Made by a program: the position numbers and the translations under genes. The notes beneath the pieces are model-generated. The model did no database searches. It was not told where the DNA came from and worked only from the letters and a program-made list of their open reading frames with translations. Shown here piece after piece: positions 6,875 through 42,472 of a stretch of DNA of 64,000 nt (position 1 is the first letter of the stretch; each line of letters begins with the position of its first letter). The DNA is from an uncultured Planctomycetota bacterium. GTDB taxonomy: Bacteria > Planctomycetota > PLA2 > JAEUHO01. Location: the NCBI GenBank assembly GCA_963752285.1, contig CAVVXN010000003.1, positions 1-64,000 of the forward strand. The letters are read 5' to 3'.

Positions 6875-9800
6875 ATGCGTTCCTCGAGGAGGTGGGGTCC
6901 TCTCGCGGTGGTGCTCGTCGTGGGAGGCGGTGCCTGGCTCCTCGCGGACGTGACGGAGCAGCCGTCGTTCGTGAACGAGCTCTCGAACGCCGACGGGAGC
7001 GCGCGTGAGGCGACGATCGCGCAGCTCGCCTCGGAGCCGTCGCGACTCTCGGACATGCTCGACGTCCTCGACGGTGACGCGTCGGCGCTCGTGAAGGCCG
7101 GCCTCGCCGAGGCGATCGGGAGGATGAGCCTCTCGACGAGCAGCCTCTCGGGGGTCGTGTCGCTCGCATCGTCCACGGATACGGTGACGCGGGCGGCGGC
7201 GGTCCGGACCCGCGGGGGAACGTCACCGTCTACCAGGTCGACGCCCAGGGCAACACGACGCAGATCCAGCGCCCCACGGTGACGAGCCCGAGCACGCAGA
7301 CGATCACCGAGACGTTCTCCTTCGACGGCCGGGGCCGGATCACGAATGCGACCGACGGCGCCGGCCGGACGGTCGACTTCTCGTACTACACGACCGGGTC
7401 CCACGCCGGCTACCTCCAGTCGGTGACGAAGGACCAAGCCGGGCTCGCGCTCACGACCACGCTCGACTACAGCCAGTACGGGGACGTCGTGTCGGTGACG
7501 GACGCGCGCGGGGCGACGACCGCCATATCCGTCGACGCGGAGGGCTACGTGACGGAGGTCCAGGCGCCGTCGCCCCTCTCGTACCGACGGAAGTTGACCT
7601 ACGACGCCGACCGTCGCGTGACCCTCGTCGAGGTCGAGAACGTCGACCGGCACGGGACCCAAGACCCGACGACGCCGTGGATCGACACGTCGTTCACCTA
7701 CGACATCGTGGGGCGGATGCTCACGAGGGCCGTGGACCTGACCGCGAGCACGACGGCGACCACGACCTGGGCCTACGACGGAAGCGGCGAAGTCATCTCC
7801 GTGACGAAGCCCGAGGGCGGGGTCACGAGCTACGAGTGGGACGAACGCCACCTCGCCTACAAGATCCACCTCGGAGCCGGGAGCGCGGTCGAGGGGACCA
7901 TCGAGTACGCCTACAACTTGAACGGCTCGCTCGCGACCTCGAAAAACCCGCGCGCGTACGAGACCACGTACGATCACGACCTGTTCGACCGTCGGACGCG
8001 CGTCACGGACGCCCTCGGCGCGTACCGGGCGTTTCAATACGACAAGTCGGGGAACCAGACACTCGTCGAGGCCTCCGACAGCCAGGCGACGCTCCTCGCG
8101 CGGACGACGCGTTACTTCGACGAGGTGGACCGGCTCTGGAAGACGGTCGACGACCGCTTCGGCCCGAACCTCACGCCGAGTCAGCCGACCGCGATCGTCA
8201 CGAGGGACCCATCGGGCCTCGTGACCCAGGTCACGGACCCGCTCTCGAACGCCACGAGCTACTCGTTCGACGCCGCGGCACGCCTCGTCCAGGTCCTCGA
8301 CGCGATGGGCGACCACGACGACTTCTCCCTCGACGCGAACGGGAACGTCACGACCCGCTCCCACACCGACCTCCCGGCCGGGGGCGGGAGCGAGACGTTC
8401 GTGACGGAGTTCGACTACGACGCGATCAACCGCGTGACCCAGAGGCGCGAGATCGACCGGTCGAACGGCCAGAACGTTCTCACGACGAATCTCGGCTACG
8501 ACAGCCGAAACGACCTGACGTGGCGGCTCGACGCCGAGTCGCACCCCGTCCGCTGGACGTACGACCTCGCGAGCCGGCTCGTCGGCTACGAGCGGGCGCT
8601 CCAGACCGGCCAGACGATCGAGGACTTCACGCAGTCGATCACGGAGAGCTTCCAGTACGACGGCAATGATCGATTGACGGGCCTGACCGATGACAACTTC
8701 AATTCCACCTCCTATCAATTCGACGCGCGAGACCGCCAGACCCGCGTGACGTATGCGGATTCACGATACGTGGACACCCAGTACGACCCGGCCTCGAACG
8801 TGTCGCAGTGGACCGATCAGAACGGGACTGTCGTGCAGAACACGTTCGACGCGCTCGACCGGAAGACGTATGCGAGCGTCACGCGGGGGACCGGCGTGCT
8901 CGGGAGCACGTTCGAGCAGTTCACCTACGACGCCCTCGGGAGGGCGCTCACCGCCGTCGACGACGACTTCCAGGTTGAGCTCACCTGGGACAGCGTGGGG
9001 AACCTCTTGAAGGAGCGCCAGGGCTACAACGCCCAGGGACAGGAGAAGTGGAAGAGCGTCACGACATCGTGGTCGGACGCCTCGAGTGTGCAGAGCGTCC
9101 TCTACCCGAGCGCCTTCGCGGCCGCCCACACGAGGGACGCGACCTACCGCATGACCGCGCTCCAGGACGTGGGCGCGGGGACGAACATCGCGAGCTTCAC
9201 CTACCAGGGGGCGGGCCGGCTCGCCACCACCTCGAACCAGAACGGGACCTCGACGGACTACACTTGGGACGGCTTCGCCCGGATCCAGGACATCGACCAC
9301 AAGCTCGGGACCGGCCAGACGCTCCACAAGTTCACCTACGCCTACGACAAGGTCCACAACCGGCGGATGGAGCAGAACACGTTCGACGCCACCTGGGTCG
9401 GGACCCTTCCGCAGGCCGTCCAGACCTTCCTCGCGGCCCGGAACACGAAGGGCGATGTCTACGCCTATGACTGGGCCTACCGCCTGACGGACGTCCGCTA
9501 CGACACCACGAACCCCCTCCAAGAGGTCCAGAACCCCGGAAGCCAGAGCTTCGCCAAGAACACCCAGTACGTGCTCGACGGCCTCGGGAACCGGAGCCAG
9601 ACGCTCACGACCCCGCCGACCCCGCCCTCGACCGTGACGTACGCTTCGGACGTGGTGAACCAGTACACCCAGGTTGGCGGCGTCACCCGGACCCACGACA
9701 ACAACGGCAACCTGACCGACGACGGGACGTACCTCTTCGCGTACGACTTCGAGAACCGGCTGGTGGAGGTCAAGCTCAAGGCGACGCAGGCCGTGATCGC

Positions 9801-10855
9801 GACGTACCGCTACGACGCGCTCGGCCGCCGGGTCGAGAAGGCCGTGACGGGCGGCGCGACGACCCGCTACGTGCTCGACGGGCAGCAGGTGATCGAGGAG
9901 TACGACGGAAACGACGTCTGGCAGGCCCGCTACATCTACGAGGACGGGATCGACCGGCCGCGCGTCATGGACCGGGCCGACCAGGCGGACGTGAACGGGA
10001 ACCAGAACACGACCGAGGTGCTCCGGTTCACCTACCACCAGCAGGCGCTGGGGTCGGTGACGGAGATCTCGGAGCCGGGCGGGAGCGTCGTCGAGTGGGT
10101 GAGCTACGACGTCTACGGGAAGCCCACGATCCTCGACCCGCAGGGGAACGTCGTCTCCCAGAGCCCGGTCGGGAACCCGTTCCTGTTCACTGGGCGGGAG
10201 TACGACTCGGAGGATGGACTGTACTTACTACCGCGCGAGGATGTATGACTCTGGAACGGGGGCGTTCTTGCAGCGAGACCCGCTCGGTTTCGCGGATGGG
10301 TTCGACCAGTACCTAGCATTTGGCGCCTCCCCCGCGAGATACCCGGATCCGATGGGTTTGAGCAAACCTCATCCTGCTGGTGGAGGTGGGGGCGCTCCCA
10401 TGGGGACACCATGGGGACTTGAGGGGAAGAACTGGGATGATCTGACGCTTGACGACATGAAGAGGTATTACGATACGCTCTTAGACTGGTGGTATTGGCA
10501 GGATCAGTACGTGCGGAGGCGTCTGGATAGAAAACTCGGTGCAGCGGCGCCCGGTGTGGGTGAGCCTATTCCTCCCAAGTTTGAAGATGGCTATCTCCTT
10601 GAAATAGAGTCCTGGCTACGGAAGTTGGCGGACCGTCTGCACCAGGCGGAGGTGGCAGCGTGGATAGCGGCTGGGCATGAGGGCCCGTCGCCTCGCTATC
10701 CGGTCGGGCCGTGGCCTCAGGGGGGCCCGCTGCCTCCGAAAGGGCGGCCGCGTCGGCTCCGGCCCCCACCCGAGGACATAAACGGTGGACAGGATCCTCC
10801 TTTCCCGCCTTCTCCCTCATGGCCCTGGCCGCGCCCACGGCCGGCTAGATGTTAG
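6875..10855 (+). pseudogene. Rhs module 2: signal peptide plus HEAT-like N-terminus joined out of frame (~7207) to the YD core; +1 frameshift at ~10225; Pro/Trp-rich tip
   Basis: GGAGGT RBS before ATG 6875. Core frame reads DPRGNVTVYQVDAQGN from 7207. GLY(t)YYRARMYD shows the extra base. DPMGL at 10346. Confidence 0.85.
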
Positions 10856-10866
10856 GAGTTCGCTGA

Positions 10867-12834
10867 ATGCGGGGTGAGACACACCATTCGAGCGGTCGCT
10901 GCGGTCTTGGCATGGTGATGACGGTGGCAGCAGCCATCGTGCTCCTTCTCGGGGGGGTGTCGGGATATGTCAAAGGAGAGGGAGATCAATCAGGGGCGCC
11001 TCTCGGCTTGAAGTCTTTGACAGCAGCCAAGACCGCGAGCAGGACCGCGTGCATTGTGGGGAAAATAGATGCGACGGCACATGCCGTTGTCCACATCAGA
11101 TCCGGACACCGGGAGCTTCGGTACGACCTCGAGCCGGGCGCTCTCGCGATGATCTTCGCCTCGAGCAGGGAGGTCCCGACGTGGGCAGGAGTAGAGGCGG
11201 AGCCAGCTTCCACGCCGGCAGGCACATGGTGGACGACGGTTCGACGACGGGTCAGCGTGCATAACGGGAGTTTCAGCCTCGGGAGCCTGCTCGCCCTCGG
11301 GCGGGTGATCCCCGGGGGCTTCGCCGTCGAGCTGTGGGGAGATGGACTGACGTGTCAGGATCTGGACCCTGCCTTGACAGGTCTCGTTTGCCGGCGCGGC
11401 AAGGTGAGACTCGGGCGTCTCGTCTCTCGGCCGCTGCGAACCGACTCCTACTTGCCCTGGCGCACTCCTCCCCCTGCGGGCGAGCCTTCCGAGGCAGGGC
11501 GCATCGTTCAAGTGGCATGTGGTGGCGTTGCGGCAACCGCGCCTGACGCCACGAGAGGCGTCGAGATCCTACCGTCGGTGCCCGCATCGGCGTCGACCCC
11601 CAGGGGCGCGCTCCTCTTCGATGGCGGGTACCGAACTCCGTATCCGAATGCGCTGACCCCCACGCCGCAAGGAGCTGCTCTGTTGGAGGAGTCGGGATTC
11701 GGCACGTCCTTCCAAGGGCTTGCGGTGCTGGTCGATGGTGAGTACATCGGCTGGTGCGAAGCAGGCGGGTGGCAGCATGGGGTCCACCACCTGTTCACGT
11801 TGAGAGACGACCGGTCGTACGGCGATGGGAGCCTCGACGGACACGTAAGCGAGTGCCTTGTCGCGGGCGGCGCGCTGGACCTGGCTCCGGAGGTGTTGGC
11901 TGTCGCGCGCCGTGACCCCGAGGGGAGGATCGAGATCCACGCGTGGCTCGGTGCTGACAATTTGACCGTGGGAGTCGCCGTTGGGGGTGATGCGGCCGCC
12001 AGCCCCGAATGGTCTTACGAGTACACCCTGAACGCCCCTCTTACGCCTCGAGACCGCCTCGTCGACGAGGCATCGCAGGTTCTGTTGGGGCGGGCGGGCA
12101 TGACCGATCTCGCGACCCTTACGTTTCGGGCAGCCGTGGAGGACGAAGACGCCCTCCGGGACGTGCTTGGCAGGGCGGATGCCGCAGGGGTGCGCTCGGC
12201 GATGGCGCGTGCCCTGGCGGGGAGCCTGGGTCGGGCGCCGTCCTACGAGGACTTCCTGTTACAGATGAATCGAACGGGCCTGGACCCGGACCTGCAGTCG
12301 CTTTGCAACGGCCAGTGCGGCCCGAACTGCGCCGAAGCCTTGGCCACCCATCATCGGTGTGACGAGCGGTGGCGCGAGAACGAGGTGCTCGACGATCTGG
12401 TTCAGTCGGTGATCGACCAGCGAAGAGACGTAGCAACTCGGTTTCTGCACCTGCTGCGTGTCCCCGACGAAGACCGCCGGACCCAGGCCGCTTGGGCGCT
12501 GCTCACCGACCGCTGGCTCCAGACTCGTTGGTGGATGCGCGACGAGCCCCGGTATGACGATGACGCGATGGAAGCACTGCATACCGTGCTGCGAGGGGGG
12601 ACGAGCGACACCGCGATCATCCGCGCGGCCATGGTGGCCGGCGAGTGCCAGGATGCGAGTCCTCTCCTGAGGGAAGACCTCGTTGTTTTGCTCGGGCACC
12701 CATCGCCCGAGGTCCGGGAGATGGCGGCTGGCGCACTCGTTCGGCAGCGATGGAATGTGCCCGCGGCAGAGAAGATCCTGGGCGATGCCCCGCAAGCCAC
12801 TTGGGTTCGGGAGTGGATGACGTCCGAGAAGTAG
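10867..12834 (+). CDS. 655-aa exported/membrane protein with C-terminal HEAT-like repeats; candidate partner of Rhs tip 2
   Basis: Starts 11 bp after the Rhs stop. N-terminal hydrophobic helix; LVVLLGHPSPEVREMAAGAL is HEAT-like. Confidence 0.7.
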   Translation: MRGETHHSSGRCGLGMVMTVAAAIVLLLGGVSGYVKGEGDQSGAPLGLKSLTAAKTASRTACIVGKIDATAHAVVHIRSGHRELRYDLEPGALAMIFASSREVPTWAGVEAEPASTPAGTWWTTVRRRVSVHNGSFSLGSLLALGRVIPGGFAVELWGDGLTCQDLDPALTGLVCRRGKVRLGRLVSRPLRTDSYLPWRTPPPAGEPSEAGRIVQVACGGVAATAPDATRGVEILPSVPASASTPRGALLFDGGYRTPYPNALTPTPQGAALLEESGFGTSFQGLAVLVDGEYIGWCEAGGWQHGVHHLFTLRDDRSYGDGSLDGHVSECLVAGGALDLAPEVLAVARRDPEGRIEIHAWLGADNLTVGVAVGGDAAASPEWSYEYTLNAPLTPRDRLVDEASQVLLGRAGMTDLATLTFRAAVEDEDALRDVLGRADAAGVRSAMARALAGSLGRAPSYEDFLLQMNRTGLDPDLQSLCNGQCGPNCAEALATHHRCDERWRENEVLDDLVQSVIDQRRDVATRFLHLLRVPDEDRRTQAAWALLTDRWLQTRWWMRDEPRYDDDAMEALHTVLRGGTSDTAIIRAAMVAGECQDASPLLREDLVVLLGHPSPEVREMAAGALVRQRWNVPAAEKILGDAPQATWVREWMTSEK

Positions 12835-33642: not shown

Positions 33643-36523
33643 TCAGTCGAGCGACCGCTCCGTCCACCAGTCCGGCTCGGCGAAGCGGACATCGGGGTCG
33701 GCGAGCGCGTCCCGCGCGACCTCGATCGGCGAGACCGTCGGGTCGGTCGGTCGGGCGAGGATCCAGCCCGCGCCGAGCGACGACGTCCGCTCCACCTCGA
33801 GCCCGCGACGCGCGGTCCACGCGCGCACGGCCTCGGGCGGGAGACGGGGGTCGAGGCGGAGGAGCACCCGGCCGGTGAGGGCCCGCGGTCGCCCGCGTCC
33901 TCGGGGTCCGTCCCGGAACACGCCGCCGGCCCGGGCCCCCGCGGCCCGGGCGGCGCGGACGAGCGCGCGCGCGTCGGCGCCCGCGCGGACCCGCCAGAGG
34001 CGGAACCCGGTCCCGCGGAGCGCGGCGCCGTCCACCTCGGGCCGCCCGGCCAGGCGCGAGGACGTGTCCGATCGGGTCCACTCGGCAACGAGCGCGTCGT
34101 CGCGGCGCGCGCGGTCCCAGCGGCAGCCGTTCCACCACGCGACCTCGTCGGGACCGGTCGTGGGCGCGGGTGGGCGCGCCGGCTCGGCGGCGCGCTTCGC
34201 GACGAGCGCCGCGGACGTCGCCGGCGCCTCGCCCTCGAGCGCCAGCGTCCAGCTCGACCACCACGAGCCGTACTCGCCCTCCCCGTCCCGGACGGTCAGG
34301 GTCCAGCCGCCGTCCGGTTCCTCGTCGAGGTCGCGCCACGTGACCAGCGGGATCCCGTCGAGCGAGCTGTCGTTCGTGTTCGTGAGACGAAGCGGCACGG
34401 CGAACACGCTCGTGGTTCCGGCGGGACTCGTGAGAGTGATCTCGAGGTCCGTCGCGGCCGGGTGGTCGATGAAGAGCGTGACGGTCGCGCGGTACACCTT
34501 CGTCAGGGAGGTGTCGCTCGCGACCGTGATCGTGCTGGAGGCGCCGTCCGGGTCCCCCGCCAGGACCGCGGCGTCCACGCTGGCGGTGCTCGACGTGGAC
34601 GCGAGGCCCGGCCGCGGCGTCCACGTCCGCGCGAGGTCCACGGCCGCCGCGGCGTCCACCACGCCGAACCCGTAGTGGGGGTTCACCCAGTGCCCGCCGG
34701 CGTTCAGCGTCCACTCGGAGTCGTTCGGGTCGTTCTTCCGTGCCGTCTCCGCGAGCACGAGCGGCACCTCCCACCAGCGCAGCGTCGGCCGGGCCTCGAG
34801 GACGAGCGCCACGACGCCCGTGACGAGCGGTGTGGCCGACGAGGTGCCCCCGAACGCGTTCGTGTAGCTGCTCGAGGAGTATCCCAGCGAGCCCGTGCGG
34901 TCGGTGGTCGTGATCCCGGGATGGCCCCCGGAGTCGTTGGACGGCGCGGCGACGAGGATGCACGGCCCTTCCTCTGAGTAGGACGTGTAGTGCCCGTCGG
35001 CGTTCACCGCGGCGATCACGTTCACGCCGCGGATGCCGTTCGTGCCGTCGAGGCCCGCGTAGGCCGGCGCCCAGTTGCCCGCCGCCTTCAGGTAGACGCT
35101 CCCGCGGCCTCCGCGGCCCGCGGACAGGCCCGTGGCGACGGCGGCGTGGAACGAGTACGGCGCCTCGGAGTAGCCGTAGAGGACGCCGCCGTAGATGGGG
35201 GGGGTGCCCCACGAGTTGTTGTACGCGTGCGTGTTCGCGGCGTTTCGGGCGAGGGCGTCCGCGATGTCGGCGTCCGTGGCGCCCGACGTGAGCACCGCGA
35301 AACCCTCGAGGTGGGCCTTCGGCGCGGCGCCGGTGATGCCGATGCCGTTCCCGCCCACGCCGGCGGCGACCCCGGCGACGGAGGTGCCGTGCTCGTTCCC
35401 GGTCGGGTCGTCGTCGTCGCCGCCGTAGTCCCAGCTCTCGCCCGAGGCCACGTTGTCCTGGAGGTCCTCGTGGGCGATCTCGAGCCCGTCGTCCACGATC
35501 CCGAGAAGCACACCGTCGCCCGTGTAGCCGAGGCCCCACGCTCCGACGACGTCCGCGTCCTCGCCGGCCGTGCTGCCCGAGACCTGCGCGGTGTTCTCGA
35601 GGTGCCACTGGCTCGAGAAGAGGGGGTCGTCGGGCGTGAACGTGGTGTACGTCCAGGCCGAGGCCATAGCCGGACGTACCGCCCCACGTGACGACGCCGA
35701 CGTCCACCGTACCCGGCGGGCCCTCCGCCGACAGACACGTGAGCGTCGCGTCGTCCTGGACCTCGACCGCCGTCGCCGCCGCGCTCCCGAAGTCCACCTC
35801 GACGACGCCCGCGTCGAACCCGCTGCCGGTCAGCGTGACGAGCGTGTAGCCGCCCGCCGGCCCGTGGTCGCGGTCGATACTCGCGAGCGTCGGCGCCGAC
35901 ACCGCGGCCCAGGCCGAGGCGAGCGACCCCGTGCCGTTCGCGTTCGTGACGACGAGGTCGTACGCGCCGAGTGCGGGCTGGGCGGGCACCCGGCAGACGA
36001 GACGCCGATCGTCCGCGACCGCCACGTCCGTCGTAGGGAGGCCGCCCACCGTGACGGTGGGCGGGCCCGCGTCGTTCGCGAGGAAGCCCGTCCCGAGCAG
36101 GGTGACGACCTGACCGCCTCCGAGCGGACCGCGCGCGGGGGTCACGACCGCCACGAGGGGCGCGGGGTGGTACGTGAACGCGCCCGCGAGCGTCGCGCTC
36201 CCGTGTCCCGTCGTGACGTCCAGGTCCGCCGGTCCGACCAGTCCCGGAGGCGTGACGCACGTGACCGTCGTTCCGTCCACCAGCACGACGTTCGTCGCCT
36301 CGGCGCCGTCGAAGAGGAGGCGGGGGAGCGTGCCGTCGGCGTTCCCGAGCCGGGTCCCCGTCACCGTCACCGAGGTGCCGCCGGCCGCCGCGCCCCCCGG
36401 CGGGTCCACCGCCGCGAGCGTCGGAGGCTCCGACGGGGTCGGCGCGGCGCTGCCGCCTCCGCCGCCGCAGCCCGCCGCGACGGTCAGCGCGAGGACGAGC
36501 GCGACGGAGCTGGATCGACGCAT
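33643..36523 (-). CDS. Lipoprotein: 3x IPT/TIG, kexin-like S8 protease, P-domain and C-terminal propeptide-like domain; frameshift at ~35670
   Basis: AAGC lipobox; catalytic motifs IVDDG, HGTSVAG, FGGTSSATP; YGFGVVDA; P-domain DLEITLTSPAGT. Confidence 0.88.
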
Positions 36524-36658
36524 GGGCGCACCCTCGACGAACGCGATGCCGATCATACGGTTCCCGACCCGCGCCGCGCGACCCGTCGCCGGAAGCGCCG
36601 GGGGCGCGGGGGCGCCTCCGCCTATACTGCGCGCGCCGCGGCGGCGGCGGGAGGGCGC

Positions 36659-37486
36659 ATGTCGGACGGGCTCAGGTCGGTTCCGACCCTGCTCGCGGCG
36701 GGGTACCCCACCGGCCTCATCACGATGGCGGTGCTCCTCGTCTTCTTCTTCGTGTCCCTGCTCCTCTACATCCGCTGGGCCCGGAAGGGCCGGGATCTCT
36801 ACGTCCGTCCGATCGGCGGCCTCGCCGCGATGAACGAGGCCATCGGCCGCGCGACCGAGATGGGGCGGCCGATCCTCTACGTCCCCGGCATCGCGGACGT
36901 GGACGACATCCAGACGATCGCCTCGATGGTGATCCTGAGCGAGGTCGCGAAGCTCGCGGCCCAGCACGACACCCGGACGATCGTGCCCACGAACAAGGCG
37001 CTCGTGTATCCGCTGGCGGAGGAGACGGTCCGGAACGCGTACCTCCACGCCGGACGTCCGGAGGCCTTCCAGCGCGACGACGTGCGGTTCCTCTCCGAGG
37101 ACCAGTTCGCCTTCACGGCCGGAACGACGGGCATCATGCTCCGTGAGCGGCCCGCCACGAACATCTACATGGGCGCGTTCTGGGCCGAGTCCCTCTTCCT
37201 CGCCGAGACGGGCTTCGCCGCCGGGGCGATCCAGATCGCGGGCACCGCGAACGTGTCGCAGCTCCCCTTCTTCGTGGCGGCGTGCGACTACACCCTGATC
37301 GGCGAGGAACTGTACGCGGCGAGCGCGTACCTCTCGCGCGAGCCGATGCTCCTGGGCTCGCTCAAGGCGTCCGACCTCTCGAAGCTCGTGTTCGGGGCCA
37401 TCATCCTCTTCGGGCTCCTCGCCGCGAACTTCCCGGACGAGTTCGGCTGGTTCACGAAGCTCTTCGACTTCACGTGGCCCCAGTGA
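36659..37486 (+). CDS. DUF6754-like membrane protein (operon gene 1)
   Basis: RPIGGLAAMNEAIGRATEMGRP, ACDYTLIGEELYAASAYLS; TATACT at 36623 and GGAGG RBS. Confidence 0.85.
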   Translation: MSDGLRSVPTLLAAGYPTGLITMAVLLVFFFVSLLLYIRWARKGRDLYVRPIGGLAAMNEAIGRATEMGRPILYVPGIADVDDIQTIASMVILSEVAKLAAQHDTRTIVPTNKALVYPLAEETVRNAYLHAGRPEAFQRDDVRFLSEDQFAFTAGTTGIMLRERPATNIYMGAFWAESLFLAETGFAAGAIQIAGTANVSQLPFFVAACDYTLIGEELYAASAYLSREPMLLGSLKASDLSKLVFGAIILFGLLAANFPDEFGWFTKLFDFTWPQ

Positions 37487-37507
37487 CGGGAGGCGGCACG
37501 GCGCTCC

Positions 37508-38161
37508 ATGTTCCGTAGGACCATCCCGCTCCTGCTCACGGCCATCGCCGGCGTGTTCATGATCATCTCGTTCTTCGTCCCCCCCGGCTGGGACGTGGCC
37601 GAGCTGGCCACCCGGATGAAGGACTGGGGCATCGTCATCGCCGCCTTCGCCGCGGTGCTCGGGGCCGGGAACATCCTCCGGGTCTCGTACCACAAGGCCC
37701 GTCGCGGTGAGGACCGGCCCTACAAGATCGTCCTGATCGTCTGCTTCGTGGTGACGACGGCCCTGGGACTGGTCGGCGGCATCCAGGACAAGACCGTGGA
37801 CACGTGGTTCGTGAACGCCGGCGCGAAGAACCCCTTCGACTGGGTCTACCAGAACATCCAGCTCCCCCTCGGGGCGACCATGTTCTCGCTCCTCGTGTTC
37901 TTCATCACCTCCGCCGCGTACCGCGCGTTCCGAATGCGCTCGCTCGAGGCGGGTCTCCTGCTGGTCGCGGCCGTGATCGTGATGCTCGGACAGCTCCCCT
38001 GGTCCAGCCAGATCGGCATGGACTGGCTGATGGGCTGGATCATGGGCGTCCCCAACGCCGCGGCGAAGCGGGCCATCCTCATGGGCGCGGCGATGGGCAT
38101 CGCGTCGATGTCGCTCCGCGTGATCCTCGGCATCGAGCGGTCCTACCTGGGGAGCGACTGA
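37508..38161 (+). CDS. Multi-pass membrane protein (operon gene 2)
   Basis: About six hydrophobic segments; ATMFSLLVFFITSAAYRAFR; ends GIERSYLG. Confidence 0.85.
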   Translation: MFRRTIPLLLTAIAGVFMIISFFVPPGWDVAELATRMKDWGIVIAAFAAVLGAGNILRVSYHKARRGEDRPYKIVLIVCFVVTTALGLVGGIQDKTVDTWFVNAGAKNPFDWVYQNIQLPLGATMFSLLVFFITSAAYRAFRMRSLEAGLLLVAAVIVMLGQLPWSSQIGMDWLMGWIMGVPNAAAKRAILMGAAMGIASMSLRVILGIERSYLGSD

Positions 38162-38164
38162 GCC

Positions 38165-38995
38165 ATGGCCGTCGGCAACATACTCTCGCGGATCGACCGC
38201 CGGCTCCTCTTCCTCTCGATGGCGATCGCGGTGATCGTCCCCTTCGTGCTGAAGGCGAAGCCCTCCGTCCAGCCGATGCAGTGGTCGCGCGACCTCTACG
38301 ACGCGGTCGAGGCCGTGAAGCCCGGTGGGGTCGTCCTCGTCTCCTGCGACTACGACCCCGGCTCCGAGGCCGAGCTGTACCCCATGACCGTCGCGATCTT
38401 CGAGCACCTGGCCCGGAAGGACGTGCGCGTCGTGATCACCGAGCTCTGGCCCGCGGCGGGGCCGCTGGTGAAGAGCGCGCTCGAGGAGACCTTCTACAAG
38501 CACGGGAAGAAGTACGGCATCGACTTCGTGGACCTCGGCTACAAGACCGGCGGGCAGATCCTCATCTCGAAGACCGTGGACTCGATCGCCCAGGCGTTCC
38601 CCGACGACGTGAACCAAACGCCCGTGTCGGAGATCCCCGCCATGCGCGGCGTGCGGAAGGCCGCGGACATCGACTTCTTCGTCAGCATCTCGGCGGGCAC
38701 ACCCGGCACGAAGGAGTGGGTGCAGCAGTGCCAGAGCCGGGTGGGGAAGCCCATGGGCTGCGGCGTCACCGCGGTCCAGGCGCCGGACCTCTTCCCCTAC
38801 ATCCTGAACCACCAGCTGATCGGGATCCTCGGAGGGCTCCGCGGCGCGGCCGACTACGAGGCGCTGGTCGGAAAGCCGGGGCGCGGCATCACGGGCATGG
38901 GGCCCCAGACGTACGGCCACCTCCTGATCGTCCTATTCATCGTCCTGGGGAACCTGGGCTTCCTGCTCTCCCGCGACGCGCCGAGGGCCTCGTGA
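38165..38995 (+). CDS. TM / alpha-beta domain / TM protein (operon gene 3)
   Basis: DYDPGSEAELYP, YGIDFVDLGYK, GILGGLRGAADYE. Confidence 0.85.
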   Translation: MAVGNILSRIDRRLLFLSMAIAVIVPFVLKAKPSVQPMQWSRDLYDAVEAVKPGGVVLVSCDYDPGSEAELYPMTVAIFEHLARKDVRVVITELWPAAGPLVKSALEETFYKHGKKYGIDFVDLGYKTGGQILISKTVDSIAQAFPDDVNQTPVSEIPAMRGVRKAADIDFFVSISAGTPGTKEWVQQCQSRVGKPMGCGVTAVQAPDLFPYILNHQLIGILGGLRGAADYEALVGKPGRGITGMGPQTYGHLLIVLFIVLGNLGFLLSRDAPRAS

Positions 38996-39759
38996 TGTCG
39001 CGCGGCAACCTCCTCCTCTTCGGCGGCACGCTCCTGGCGCTCCTCGGCACCGGGTTCCTGCTCGGCGACTTCGCCTCCTGGACGCTCTTCGGGACGCTGC
39101 TCGCCGCGTTCCTGACCCTGGCCGTGTTCTCGTTCCTCGTGCGAGACAACCCCCTCTACAAGCTGGCGGAGCACATCTTCATCGGGGTGGCGACGGGATA
39201 CGTGCTGGCGTACTCGTTCTGGAGCGTCTTCGTCCCCAACGTGTGGCGGCAGTTCCAGTCGCTCCGCCTGGGCACGGCGGCCCCCGAGGACCGGAAGTGG
39301 ATCTGGCTCCTCGTCATCCCCGTGCTCCTGGGCCTGCTCTTCTTCGCCCGGTTCGTACCCAAGTACGCCTGGCTCTCGCGCTGGTCGATCGCGTTCCTGA
39401 TCGGGGCGTACGCGGGCGTGAACTGCACCGGGTACTTCCAGACCGACCTGATCAACCAGGCCTCCTCCACCTTCCACGACTTCGGTCGCCTCCATCCGGG
39501 CCCGAACCACGGCTGGGTGGACATCCTGACCGTCAACGTCCCGATCCTCGTGGGGGTGCTCAGCACACTGACCTACTTCTTCTTCTCGAAGCCCCATCGC
39601 GGGGTGGTGGGCGTCTCGGCGCGGCTCGGCGTGTTCTTCCTGATGGTCGCCTTCGGCGCGTCGTTCGGCTACACGGTCATGGGACGCATCTCGCTCTTCA
39701 TCGGGCGCGTGCAGTTCCTGATCCAGGACTGGTTGGCGCCTCTGCACATCCTCGGCTGA
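38995..39759 (+). CDS. Multi-pass membrane protein (operon gene 4)
   Basis: FSFLVRDNPLYKLAEHIFIG, MVAFGASFGYTVMGR; TGATG coupling. Confidence 0.85.
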   Translation: MSRGNLLLFGGTLLALLGTGFLLGDFASWTLFGTLLAAFLTLAVFSFLVRDNPLYKLAEHIFIGVATGYVLAYSFWSVFVPNVWRQFQSLRLGTAAPEDRKWIWLLVIPVLLGLLFFARFVPKYAWLSRWSIAFLIGAYAGVNCTGYFQTDLINQASSTFHDFGRLHPGPNHGWVDILTVNVPILVGVLSTLTYFFFSKPHRGVVGVSARLGVFFLMVAFGASFGYTVMGRISLFIGRVQFLIQDWLAPLHILG

Positions 39760-39910
39760 CGCGCGCGGCGCGGTCCATGGTCGAGCCGGATCGCGCCGAT
39801 CGGAAAGAACGAAGATTCGCGTGCTCATCGTTTGCACGCTCAGTCGGAGTTCCCTGCAACTTCGTTGCGACACGATGCACGATGTCGCGAGGGATTGCTG
39901 GAGACCTCCG

Positions 39911-42472
39911 ATGACGCGCTTCACGAGGTTCACGCGGCTCCTCACCCTCGCGTCCGTAGCGTTGACCACCACGTCGACGCTCGTGCTGGCCGGTTGCGGC
40001 AACGGCTCGACGTCGGACGCGGTGACGCTTCCGCCCTCGACGATGGTGAAGGTGCATCAGTTCGCGTACGACCAGGCGACGAAGACCTATCTCGTGATGG
40101 GCGAGACCGTGACGCAGGACGCCGTCGATCGCGACCTCGTCGGCTCTCTCTGCGTTCACTGCCACTCGGACCAGGTCAGCCAGCTGCGCGACAGCGCGCA
40201 CTTCAAGCTCGCCGCGAAGACGAAGCGGGTGCTGTTCCCCGGCGGCGGCGCCCACGGCATGCTCGATCGCGCGTGCGGCCTCCCCGCCACGACCGGCCTC
40301 ACGAACTACAACTCGAACGTCGGTCTGAACGAATGCGCGAAGTGCCACGTGGACCGCTACATGCCCGCGATGGAGGGCTTCTTCGCGAGCATGTTCGGCC
40401 CGATGGGCGTGGCCGATCCGTCGGGCGAGGCGAGGCGCCTGGTGGACGCCGGACTCGACTGCATGGTCTGCCACGCCGCGAAGTACAAGTCGCACCCGAC
40501 CTCCGGCGTGCTGGCCGACGTCGCCGGCACCGCGACGGCGGACGCCACCTCCCCGACCCGCATCGGCGCGGCGCGTGACGCGCGCGACGACGGCGACTTC
40601 AACCACGACGGGAAGCCCGACCTGGTGATCGACGTGAACGGCGACGGGACGCCCGACGTGCCCCTCATGATGGACCGCGACGGCGACGGGACGCCCGAGA
40701 CGCCCTGGCCCACCGTGGCGCAGGACCGGAGCGCCGAGGCGATCCTCAGCATGGGGCCGACCTCCGAGGAGGCGTGCCTCAGGTGCCACGAGCACGCGCG
40801 CACGGGCTACAAGCGCGGCACCCTCTTCCTCGAGGGTCACGACGTCCACGCGAGCGCCACGAGCGGCCCGTTCCAGGGCGCCGACAACCGCTGCACGGTC
40901 TGCCACACCGCCGCCTGGCACAAGTTCGTCCGCGGCCACGAGGTGGGCGGCGACCTGGCCGCCGCGGACTACCCGCCGCCGGCTCCCGGGACGGCGCCGA
41001 ACCCCGCCGACCCCACCGAGCTCACCTGCCAGAAGTGTCACGATCCCGCGACCCTTCCGGAGTGGATCCACACCGAGCGGCACCTCGCCGTGATGGCCTG
41101 CGAGACGTGCCACATCCCGTACTCGAGCGGCATCACGTACTCGCTCTTCGGCCACGGGGGTCACGTCGCGTTCGCGCGCACCGACGCGGGGACGGACACG
41201 AAGCTGGTGGTGGCCGACATGTACGCCGCGGACGGCCGCGCCGACGTGGACGCCGACTGGGAGGCGTTCAAGAGCCGGCCGATCCTGACGTGGTTCGACG
41301 GCGGGACCTCGTTCCTCGCGCAGTCGCTCTCCGTGCGCGGGATGCCCAACGCGCGCATCACGCCCTTCAAGCCCATGGCCAACGGCATGGTCTTCGACGC
41401 GAGGTTCTTCCAGGGCGCGACCCTGAAGAACGACGCGGGCGCGGACTACAACGCGTACTCCATGTACCGGTTCTTCGCGAACGGCATGAACGCCGAGGCT
41501 TTCCAGGCGCTCGGCATGCTCGAGATGAGCCCCGCCGCGGTCCGGCAGGTGACGCTCAACAGCTTCTTCGACCCGGACCCCACGGTCCAGGCGATGGCGC
41601 TGATGCAGATCTTCCCGAACCTCGTGTACTTCGACAAGGCAGACTACGGCTACGAGCACTACCTCACGAAGACCGGATCGCCCTACGACCAGAACCACGA
41701 CGGGGTGATCGACGCCGGGCAGCCCTTCCTCTTCGACATGCTGCACGCGTCGAACGCCGGTCTCGCCCAGTTCCAGGCCTTCAACGGCCCGATGGGCTTC
41801 CCGAAGGCCTACTCGTGGTACCCGACCTTCTCGGGCGTCCAGGACGTGATCAGCATGAAGCTCCCCGACGGGAGCCTCATCAAGATGTTCCTCGAGATGC
41901 AGGCCACAAAGCTCCCGCCGGACCAGCAGGCCGCGTACCTCGCGGCGGTCGCGAGCTACCCCGCCTACTCGAACGTCACGCTCGGGGGGCACGGCGTGCT
42001 CCCGAAGGAGGCGGCGCTCGGGAACAACTGCATGGACTGCCACGGCGCGGGCGGCGTGCTGTCGCACCCGGTCCCGGTCACCCGGAAGGTCCGGACCGAC
42101 ATGGGGATGCTCGGCCAGCTCGACCTCCCGCTCTACCGGTGGCGGTACTACCAGGTGCGGGCCCTCACGGACCTCGGCCTCTCGACCAGCTCGGAGGAGG
42201 TGTTGGCCGGCGCGAAGAACGTGGATGTCGCCGGGAATACGACCTACCTCCGGGACAGCGCGACCGACTTCGTGCTGAACTGGCTCGTGCCGAACGCGCC
42301 GGGCGGCTACCGCGCGGCCGACGACCCGACGGCCCTCCAGGGCACGGGCCTCACGGCCGACGACCTGACCTGGCACGGTGGGGCCTGGATGCCGGTCCTC
42401 GAGCCCGTCGTGGACATGCGCCCCAACTACGAGGTCTTGGGGTACGACAGGTCGGAGATCCTCTGGAACTAG
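39911..42472 (+). CDS. Octaheme c-type cytochrome lipoprotein
   Basis: LAGC lipobox; eight CxxCH motifs (CVHCH, CAKCH, CMVCH, CLRCH, CTVCH, CQKCH, CETCH, CMDCH). Confidence 0.92.
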   Translation: MTRFTRFTRLLTLASVALTTTSTLVLAGCGNGSTSDAVTLPPSTMVKVHQFAYDQATKTYLVMGETVTQDAVDRDLVGSLCVHCHSDQVSQLRDSAHFKLAAKTKRVLFPGGGAHGMLDRACGLPATTGLTNYNSNVGLNECAKCHVDRYMPAMEGFFASMFGPMGVADPSGEARRLVDAGLDCMVCHAAKYKSHPTSGVLADVAGTATADATSPTRIGAARDARDDGDFNHDGKPDLVIDVNGDGTPDVPLMMDRDGDGTPETPWPTVAQDRSAEAILSMGPTSEEACLRCHEHARTGYKRGTLFLEGHDVHASATSGPFQGADNRCTVCHTAAWHKFVRGHEVGGDLAAADYPPPAPGTAPNPADPTELTCQKCHDPATLPEWIHTERHLAVMACETCHIPYSSGITYSLFGHGGHVAFARTDAGTDTKLVVADMYAADGRADVDADWEAFKSRPILTWFDGGTSFLAQSLSVRGMPNARITPFKPMANGMVFDARFFQGATLKNDAGADYNAYSMYRFFANGMNAEAFQALGMLEMSPAAVRQVTLNSFFDPDPTVQAMALMQIFPNLVYFDKADYGYEHYLTKTGSPYDQNHDGVIDAGQPFLFDMLHASNAGLAQFQAFNGPMGFPKAYSWYPTFSGVQDVISMKLPDGSLIKMFLEMQATKLPPDQQAAYLAAVASYPAYSNVTLGGHGVLPKEAALGNNCMDCHGAGGVLSHPVPVTRKVRTDMGMLGQLDLPLYRWRYYQVRALTDLGLSTSSEEVLAGAKNVDVAGNTTYLRDSATDFVLNWLVPNAPGGYRAADDPTALQGTGLTADDLTWHGGAWMPVLEPVVDMRPNYEVLGYDRSEILWN

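Follow-up and report, generated by a model that had tools for sequence, protein, structure and literature searches.

A conserved four-gene DUF6754 membrane cassette of Planctomycetota and its possible coupling to an actin-fold ATPase

Energy-coupling factor (ECF) transporters and importers with shared ATP-binding cassette (ABC) ATPases, such as MsiK, use one ATPase to serve several membrane or specificity modules. In MacB/FtsEX-type systems, nucleotide hydrolysis in the cytoplasm drives mechanotransmission. The Rnf/Nqr complexes consist of two subunits with six transmembrane (TM) helices each, TM-anchored subunits with periplasmic and cytoplasmic domains, and a cytoplasmic subunit with a barrel-sandwich hybrid. 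Here we analysed a stretch of 64,000 nucleotides (nt) from an uncultured Planctomycetota bacterium (contig CAVVXN010000003.1, positions 1-64,000, forward strand; hereafter the window), which contains four adjacent genes for membrane proteins, here called g1 to g4. An earlier note on this DNA had proposed that they encode a heterotetrameric transporter or channel built from two diverged, possibly oppositely oriented halves. The genes are as follows:

36659-37486, plus strand: g1, 275 amino acids (aa), DUF6754
37508-38161, plus strand: g2, 217 aa, six TM helices
38165-38995, plus strand: g3, 276 aa, TM helix, Rossmann-like domain, TM helix
38995-39759, plus strand: g4, 254 aa, about seven TM helices

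Beside many of the cassettes found in other genomes lies a gene matching, over its whole length, the family PF13941 ('MutL'), which we take to comprise the glutamate mutase protein MutL and, within the actin/ASKHA fold, the reactivase branch of the EutA/DdrA type. The cassette-linked protein differs from MutL in having an extra C-terminal part and in being linked to membrane cassettes instead of B12 enzymes. By analogy, one putative engine locus with one to three or more paralogous cassettes per genome would resemble the importers of the ECF/MsiK type; unlike these, the cassette has neither an ABC ATPase nor a Walker A motif, and it has other folds and four subunits. Likewise, the pairing of a nucleotide-binding partner in the cytoplasm with membrane subunits whose outward domains are of considerable size would be analogous to MacB/FtsEX, whereas no sequence or family relation to these systems was found in Pfam or NCBIfam. 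As the best explanation of the locus as a whole we propose, with a probability of roughly 0.4, an exchangeable membrane cassette of an ATPase-coupled machine for transport or force transmission.

Conservation and spread of the four-gene cassette

The four genes had been described as tightly coupled, and listing and translating the open reading frames (ORFs) recovered four co-directional ORFs at exactly the coordinates given above. They are separated by 21 nt (g1/g2) and 3 nt (g2/g3), while the stop codon of g3 and the start codon of g4 share one nucleotide (TGATG). Profiles of the four proteins were compared with 101 fetched loci, counting those g1 homologues that are followed by at least 2.6 kb of downstream DNA (n=106). 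In 99 of these 106 cases, all from other genomes, the four families follow each other in the order g1-g2-g3-g4 on the same strand, so that the operon conservation the earlier note had suggested checking is borne out. Two of the seven exceptions are technical, and in three others a g3 homologue is located elsewhere in the same genome. Within the window's phylum, 17 of 20 loci show the four-gene order. The four-gene set occurs far beyond chance, and g1 to g4 almost certainly form a conserved four-protein membrane unit.

Furthermore, of the 201 genomes sampled from the window's phylum, 53 contain DUF6754. A pattern scan with one genome per species gave at least 627 further loci, in entries titled Eisenbacteria, Zixibacteria, WOR-3, Ignavibacteria, Fermentibacteria, Acidobacteriota, Planctomycetaceae, Cloacimonadota, Vulcanimicrobiota and others. 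The cassettes are arranged in tandem, head to tail, with one to three per locus, and parts of three are present in nine loci. In a tree of g1, the tandem positions 1, 2 and 3 fall into separate clades that are common to several genomes, which indicates that tandem cassettes are old paralogues.

The window's own genome contains exactly two cassettes and one PF13941 locus. The second cassette lies on another contig (locus L003, 4416-7664, minus strand), and its proteins are 50, 37, 35 and 42% identical to g1, g2, g3 and g4, respectively. The window's copies keep all family-invariant residues (32 in g1, 5 in g2, 6 in g3 and 11 in g4), these columns including the window sequence by construction; the alignments of g2 and g4 contain no invariant Cys. 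In the g1 tree, long branches lead to both cassettes of this genome. None of the genomes sampled from the window's family (four) and from its order (four) contained DUF6754, and its distribution is therefore patchy. Long branches and absence from these sampled relatives suggest that the cassettes may have been acquired horizontally.

Among the four proteins only g1 is catalogued, as the domain of unknown function DUF6754 (PF20539), so that the Pfam entry covers one protein of the cassette; neither Pfam nor NCBIfam has a model for g2, g3 or g4. The system had been put forward as an undescribed one. In agreement with this, no match to any characterised complex was obtained with Pfam, NCBIfam, PDB profiles or fold searches with g1 and g3. 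A literature search on DUF6754, PF20539 and PF13941, with subscription journals outside its coverage, returned no paper.

Architecture, topology and relationships of the four proteins

The resemblance of g1 to DUF6754, which had been noticed before, extends over the full length of the family (361 bits against a gathering score of 27, E 3.5e-108). Residues 21-258 of g1 align with profile positions 11-248 of 257, and a search of the genome agrees. A short N-terminus outside the cell is followed by TM1 (about 20-38), a cytoplasmic alpha/beta domain and TM2 (about 240-258). This topology is deduced from the concentration of lysine and arginine (K+R) just after TM1, which places the soluble domain in the cytoplasm and both ends outside: over 113 g1 homologues the mean K+R count is 4.2 in the 15 residues after TM1, compared with 1.8 in the N-terminus and 0.7 in the C-terminal tail. 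In an alignment with 112 homologues, to which g1 is 44-59% identical, 32 columns are invariant, and the most conserved stretch (185-230) belongs to the cytoplasmic domain. The AlphaFold2 (AF2) model of g1, built from a 26-row alignment, is of moderate quality, with a predicted local distance difference test score (pLDDT) of 66, and it is poorest in the most conserved stretch, at 185-218.

Many homologues are much longer than g1. At least 1729 DUF6754 proteins have 483-2000 aa, and in 119 of the best 120 of these the extra length (median 425 aa) is entirely N-terminal to the DUF6754 part. Counted from the table of these best 120, PQQ-type beta-propeller families occur in 35 and FN3 in 5, whereas the ectodomains of six very long g1 forms from the window's phylum contain no Pfam family. 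At the N-terminus of the paralogous g1 in the same genome are a signal peptide and about 110 aa of FN3-like sequence. The window's g1 is a bare version that lacks an ectodomain, since only 19 residues precede TM1. One of the best 120 long proteins has the arrangement g3-g3-g1, in which a g3-like part, split by an insert, is fused before g1.

The g3 protein starts inside and crosses the membrane with TM1 (14-32), followed by an extracytoplasmic domain, TM2 (about 251-269) and a C-terminus inside. Again this follows from the charge distribution, as K+R flank TM1 on its N-terminal side and TM2 on its C-terminal side, with family means of 3.5 before TM1 and 2.7 after TM2. Its AF2 model shows a six-stranded Rossmann-like domain between the two TM helices (pLDDT 95.8, predicted template modelling score 0.91). 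Nearly invariant residues (D62, P65, E70, P73, M74, G200, T202, V204, G220 and G224-E232) are found on the loops after strands 1, 5 and 6, which in this model may correspond to the usual ligand crevice of Rossmann-like folds. In total, a g3 profile search retrieved 5498 of 1.84 billion cluster representatives at E <= 0.001, and inserts of 50-550 aa occur in many g3 homologues at about profile position 110. No match to g3 was found in Pfam, NCBIfam or PDB sequence searches. A fold search with the g3 model gave only generic Rossmann-like domains, along with PDB entry 1kjn (MT0777), a structural-genomics protein of unknown function; among the literature matches listed for MTH777/MT0777/1KJN, none dealt with the function of MT0777. 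Taken together, the fold searches with g1 and g3 returned nothing specific.

The description of genes 2 and 4 as polytopic holds, with six hydrophobic spans in g2 and about seven in g4 by hydropathy. Both termini of g2 are inside, and an alignment of 110 homologues shows a conserved motif around residues 120-142; Pfam, NCBIfam and PDB gave no match. For g4, of which 108 homologues were aligned, the conserved polar residues include D51, N52, E59, R129, H201 and R231. No family was identified for g4 in Pfam, NCBIfam or PDB, and the ESM Atlas returned only unnamed clusters of g4's own family. Two natural g3-g4 fusion proteins were found (P0181 and P0215, 598 aa, 46% identical to each other), which physically tie the g3 and g4 subunits together. 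Each contains one extra linker TM, and the window's g4 carries an extra N-terminal hydrophobic span that matches it. The linker fits a g3 that ends inside and a g4 core that starts outside.

The earlier note had seen a pseudo-symmetry in the cassette, and part of this could be reproduced. In both g1 and g3, about 200 soluble residues lie between two TM helices, and the two proteins are alike in size. Their opposite orientation, with soluble domains on both sides of the membrane, is also upheld by the K+R counts (g1 with its N-terminus outside and its domain inside, g3 with its N-terminus inside and its domain outside). It is further backed by the signal peptide of the paralogous g1, by the extensions of long g1 homologues, which are N-terminal in 119 of the best 120, and by the extra linker TM of the g3-g4 fusions. 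In addition, the order of helices and strands matches between the models of g1 and g3 up to about residue 184 of g1, the part modelled with confidence.

Common descent of the two halves found no such backing. BLASTP of g1 against g3 and of g2 against g4 gave no match. Profile comparison with hhalign gave probabilities of 0.7% (shallow alignments) and 1.4% (deep, full-length) for g1/g3, and of 4.9% (shallow) and 0.6% (deep) for g2/g4. Under a permissive setting, a collinear alignment of the g1 and g3 soluble domains extended over 167 columns (P 0.069). When the C-terminal parts of g1 and g3 were compared alone, in a region chosen after the fact, the register that the earlier note had read by eye was recovered (P 0.007, probability 5.4%). 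Its 'parallel C-termini' are thus reproduced in register with these parts only, whereas an excess over chance is not supported by the full-length comparison at 1.4%. In six tests on the halves of g2 and g4, the best result came from the N-terminal against the C-terminal half of g4 (probability 17%, P 0.0015); halves of g2 against halves of g4 reached at most 0.9%, and g2 and g4 appear unrelated both as wholes and by halves. Because profile comparison finds no homology for either pair, the idea of two diverged halves is unproven.

A putative PF13941 partner and candidate mechanisms

The four genes had been regarded as a self-contained unit. This view is not supported by other genomes, in which the cassette adjoins a PF13941 gene and two further conserved genes and in which DUF6754 and PF13941 co-occur genome by genome. 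In a survey of 126 flanking ORFs of 23 loci, a trio of genes encoding a protein of about 130 aa, a PF13941 protein and a protein of about 375 aa recurred in 11 loci, immediately upstream of g1 in ten, where the other two genes flank that for PF13941, and after g4 in one (L121). No Pfam family was found for the protein of about 130 aa. The PF13941 protein (about 600-610 aa) matches the family from end to end, with E-values of 1e-119 to 1e-134, and it retains the phosphate-1, phosphate-2 and adenosine motifs of the fold (DCGSTTTK, DIGGATTD and GSGGVLSH); in the PDB, no chain was matched by sequence at E <= 0.01. The protein of about 375 aa combines a barrel-sandwich-hybrid domain (RnfC_N, NqrA_N or biotin-lipoyl-like) with a KOW-like end. 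Sequence and profile searches of the PDB with g1 to g4, the 375-aa neighbour and the ASKHA protein gave nothing below E 0.05.

The PF13941 gene was detected by tblastn inside 33 of the 101 fetched loci, and it may lie hundreds of kb away from the cassette (280 kb in genome G032, for example). In the sample of 201 genomes, PF13941 scored above the cut-off in 57; 51 genomes had both families and 142 had neither. DUF6754 was present without PF13941 in two genomes, both assembled in more than 400 contigs. Conversely, six genomes had PF13941 without DUF6754, four of them being 72-79% complete. In the window's genome the trio sits at the second cassette, off the window (L003, corresponding to G000:C5:1926000-1940000), where the 375-aa gene is intact.

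Within g1 to g4 a motif search found no Walker A, CxxC or CxxCH motif, and g1, g2 and g4 contain one Cys each. Similarly, neither an ABC_tran match nor Walker A was found in g1 to g4 or in the three flanking ORFs scanned. The statement that the system has no ATPase or redox motifs is thus true of the four proteins themselves, but for the ATPase it is limited to this locus, as an ATPase-like PF13941 gene accompanies many cassettes elsewhere.

From these data a mechanism can be put together, for which we infer docking, energy coupling and cargo. The four proteins would form one inner-membrane complex, the window's copy being a minimal version that lacks an ectodomain. We consider it rather likely, judging from co-occurrence and neighbourhood, that the cassette docks through the very conserved cytoplasmic domain of g1 onto a shared cytoplasmic engine, which would consist of the three proteins encoded by the trio. 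In the weakest layer of the model, movement driven by the nucleotide would pass through the polytopic g2 and g4 to the outward Rossmann-like domain of g3, and in other copies it might also reach the large, exchangeable ectodomains of g1. A modular machine is suggested by the presence of several paralogous cassettes per one ASKHA locus and by the variable parts (the N-terminus of g1 and the inserts of g3), which all face outwards. Its purpose might be the uptake of a captured substrate by a primary transporter, in which one engine would serve several substrate-specific cassettes. ATPase-coupled uptake is in our view the likeliest single function, though a tentative and rather doubtful assignment. 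Somewhat unlikely, in our estimation, is the broadest form of the proposal, a new class of primary active machine in which an actin-fold (ASKHA) ATPase, in place of an ABC, P-type or rotary one, powers interchangeable cassettes whose outward g3 and g1 domains select the cargo. The label 'transporter or channel' for g1 to g4 is a guess.

Several observations weigh against an ATPase-coupled cassette. In none of the subunits did the searches (Pfam, NCBIfam and PDB, and for g4 also the ESM Atlas) reveal a transporter fold, motif or family. The outward domain of g3 has a single, common Rossmann-like fold and not the two-lobed fold of a solute-binding protein, unlike the importers that depend on such proteins, namely the ABC, tripartite ATP-independent periplasmic (TRAP) and tripartite tricarboxylate (TTT) transporters. 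Co-occurrence with PF13941 is a strong association and not a statistic, because related genomes are not independent. In the window's organism itself, no ATPase gene is located near the cassette, which is bordered by a divergent pair of genes for a lipoprotein and an S8 peptidase and, downstream, by a gene for a multihaem cytochrome. Moreover, the sole PF13941 gene of this genome (L003 about 9400-11234, minus strand), although otherwise highly conserved, was matched in three pieces and three frames, with breaks near L003:10815 and L003:10337. Contigs of four soil-metagenome runs were compared with this ASKHA locus. One contig of 151 nt (depth 2.8) has one extra base at L003:10337, whereas all four runs lacked cover at the break near L003:10815, and one of them (X4) yielded no contig matching the locus. 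The breaks may be assembly errors or real frameshifts, and in the latter case the engine may be broken in this organism. Finally, neighbours that hint at uptake, such as a TonB-dependent-receptor-like gene after g4 (4 of 23 loci) or two SBP_bac_5 genes after g4 (1 of 23), are a minority and lineage-specific; the other flanks hold housekeeping genes.

Other explanations account for some of the same observations. The cassette could be a force-transmitting machine of the envelope, in which nucleotide hydrolysis moves the outward domains of g3 and g1, these act on a hydrolase, an adhesin or an outer-membrane partner, and nothing crosses the inner membrane. All variable parts lying outside (g1 N-terminal extensions and g3 inserts), a g1 whose cytoplasmic domain is its most conserved part, the failure to find a transporter fold, and ectodomains whose folds serve as scaffolds or for binding (beta-propeller and FN3, besides long stretches that are coiled-coil-like or rich in beta structure and have no Pfam match) are consistent with such a device. 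It is nevertheless unlikely: the window's cassette and many others keep all invariant residues yet have no ectodomain, and the scanned flanks contain no conserved gene for an extracytoplasmic partner. We regard as quite unlikely a self-contained heterotetrameric secondary transporter or channel composed of two diverged, inverted halves (g1 with g2, g3 with g4) and energised by an ion gradient, to which the ASKHA genes would be no more than regulators or bystanders. The common length, layout and opposite orientation of g1 and g3, the agreement of their helix and strand order to about residue 184, their weakly collinear alignment (P 0.069) and C-terminal motifs in register (P 0.007), the conserved charged residues of g4 that are embedded in the membrane, and the frequent distance between cassette and ATPase gene all fit this arrangement. 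It is opposed by the insignificant profile probabilities of both pairs, by the six TM helices of g2 as against about seven in g4 with no motifs in common, and by the fact that 51 of the 53 cassette genomes also have PF13941.

A signal-transducing receptor, in which the g1 ectodomain senses the outside and the conserved cytoplasmic domain relays the signal, would explain why g1 joins variable ectodomains to a conserved cytoplasmic domain. Such a role is improbable, given that neither the cassette nor the conserved trio contains a kinase, cyclase, HAMP, PAS or DNA-binding family, and that three additional membrane subunits with strong conservation, as well as tandem cassettes, are atypical of receptors. 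The layout of the cassette recalls Rnf/Nqr, and for this reason a comparison with these ion pumps was made. A cofactor-less relative of them would share a similar number and layout of subunits, as well as the RnfC_N/NqrA_N-type barrel-sandwich domain of the 375-aa neighbour. In locus L056 this neighbour matches RnfC_N with 33.4 bits (cut-off 25.6) and NQRA_N with 25.5 bits (cut-off 25), scores obtained at a relaxed threshold in a scan of three copies, with a weaker match in the other two. Yet hhalign of g2 and g4 against 30 Rnf/Nqr D/E-type (PF02508) sequences gave a probability of 0.6% each, PF02508 itself does not match g2 or g4, CxxC motifs, Cys ligands and flavin sites are missing, g2 and g4 have a single Cys each, and the genome carries its own PF02508 pair elsewhere. 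At the sequence level an Rnf/Nqr identity was therefore rejected, and even a distant kinship is hardly credible. Complex predictions for four chains with g1 as the partner provided neither support for nor evidence against binding. Among the candidate mechanisms, the exchangeable, ATPase-coupled membrane cassette remains our preferred one, and the cassette is probably part of a membrane machine of a new type.

Genomic surroundings and significance of the cassette

Around the cassette, the window contains the following features:

33643-35667, minus strand: S8 subtilase with P-domain, divergent from g1
about 35700-36523, minus strand: lipoprotein gene, divergent from g1, with repeated segments read by eye as IPT/TIG-like
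36623-36628, plus strand: TATACT hexamer, 31 nt 5' of the g1 ATG, proposed as promoter (status unverified)
36649-36655, plus strand: GGGAGGG, Shine-Dalgarno-like run before g1, read from the sequence
39821-42472, plus strand: multihaem cytochrome, 883 aa
42634-43185: 49-bp tandem repeat, 11.2 copies, 97% matches

The TATACT hexamer that had been taken for the promoter of the cassette is indeed present, but its promoter status is not supported by a scan of 36300-40100 for the sigma-70 consensus, which found 0 promoter-like sites. A terminator scan gave two terminator-like matches, both inside genes and as many as in shuffled sequences. The G+C content of the four-gene region is about 67-71%, as in the rest of the window. 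The cytochrome gene begins 61 nt past g4 without a terminator-like site in between; its product has several CxxCH motifs and weak matches to MtrC/MtrF-like domains and cytochrome c7, and its proximity to the cassette is not conserved in other genomes. The tandem repeat just 3' of the cytochrome gene is G+C-rich and open in several frames.

Elsewhere, among the 23 surveyed loci, enzyme I of the phosphotransferase system (PTS) was found in four, bacterial phosphoglucose isomerase in three of those, and S-adenosylmethionine (SAM) synthetase in five. In the Zixibacteria-type loci L070, L100, L113 and L126, PTS enzyme I precedes the cassette, with phosphoglucose isomerase in three of them, and in L070, L113 and L126 an NTP-transferase and SAM synthetase follow it. 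This context probably reflects lineage synteny.

The cassette is a strongly conserved four-protein membrane set of many bacterial phyla, across which g1 retains 44-59% identity and g3 forms thousands of clusters. As it is carried by genomes both inside the window's phylum and in several others, it is directly testable. If it is true that an actin-fold ATPase drives the cassette, this would represent a new energising principle for membrane transport or mechanotransmission, and a sizeable block of 'hypothetical' genes in the genomes of soil, sediment and candidate-phylum bacteria would be explained.

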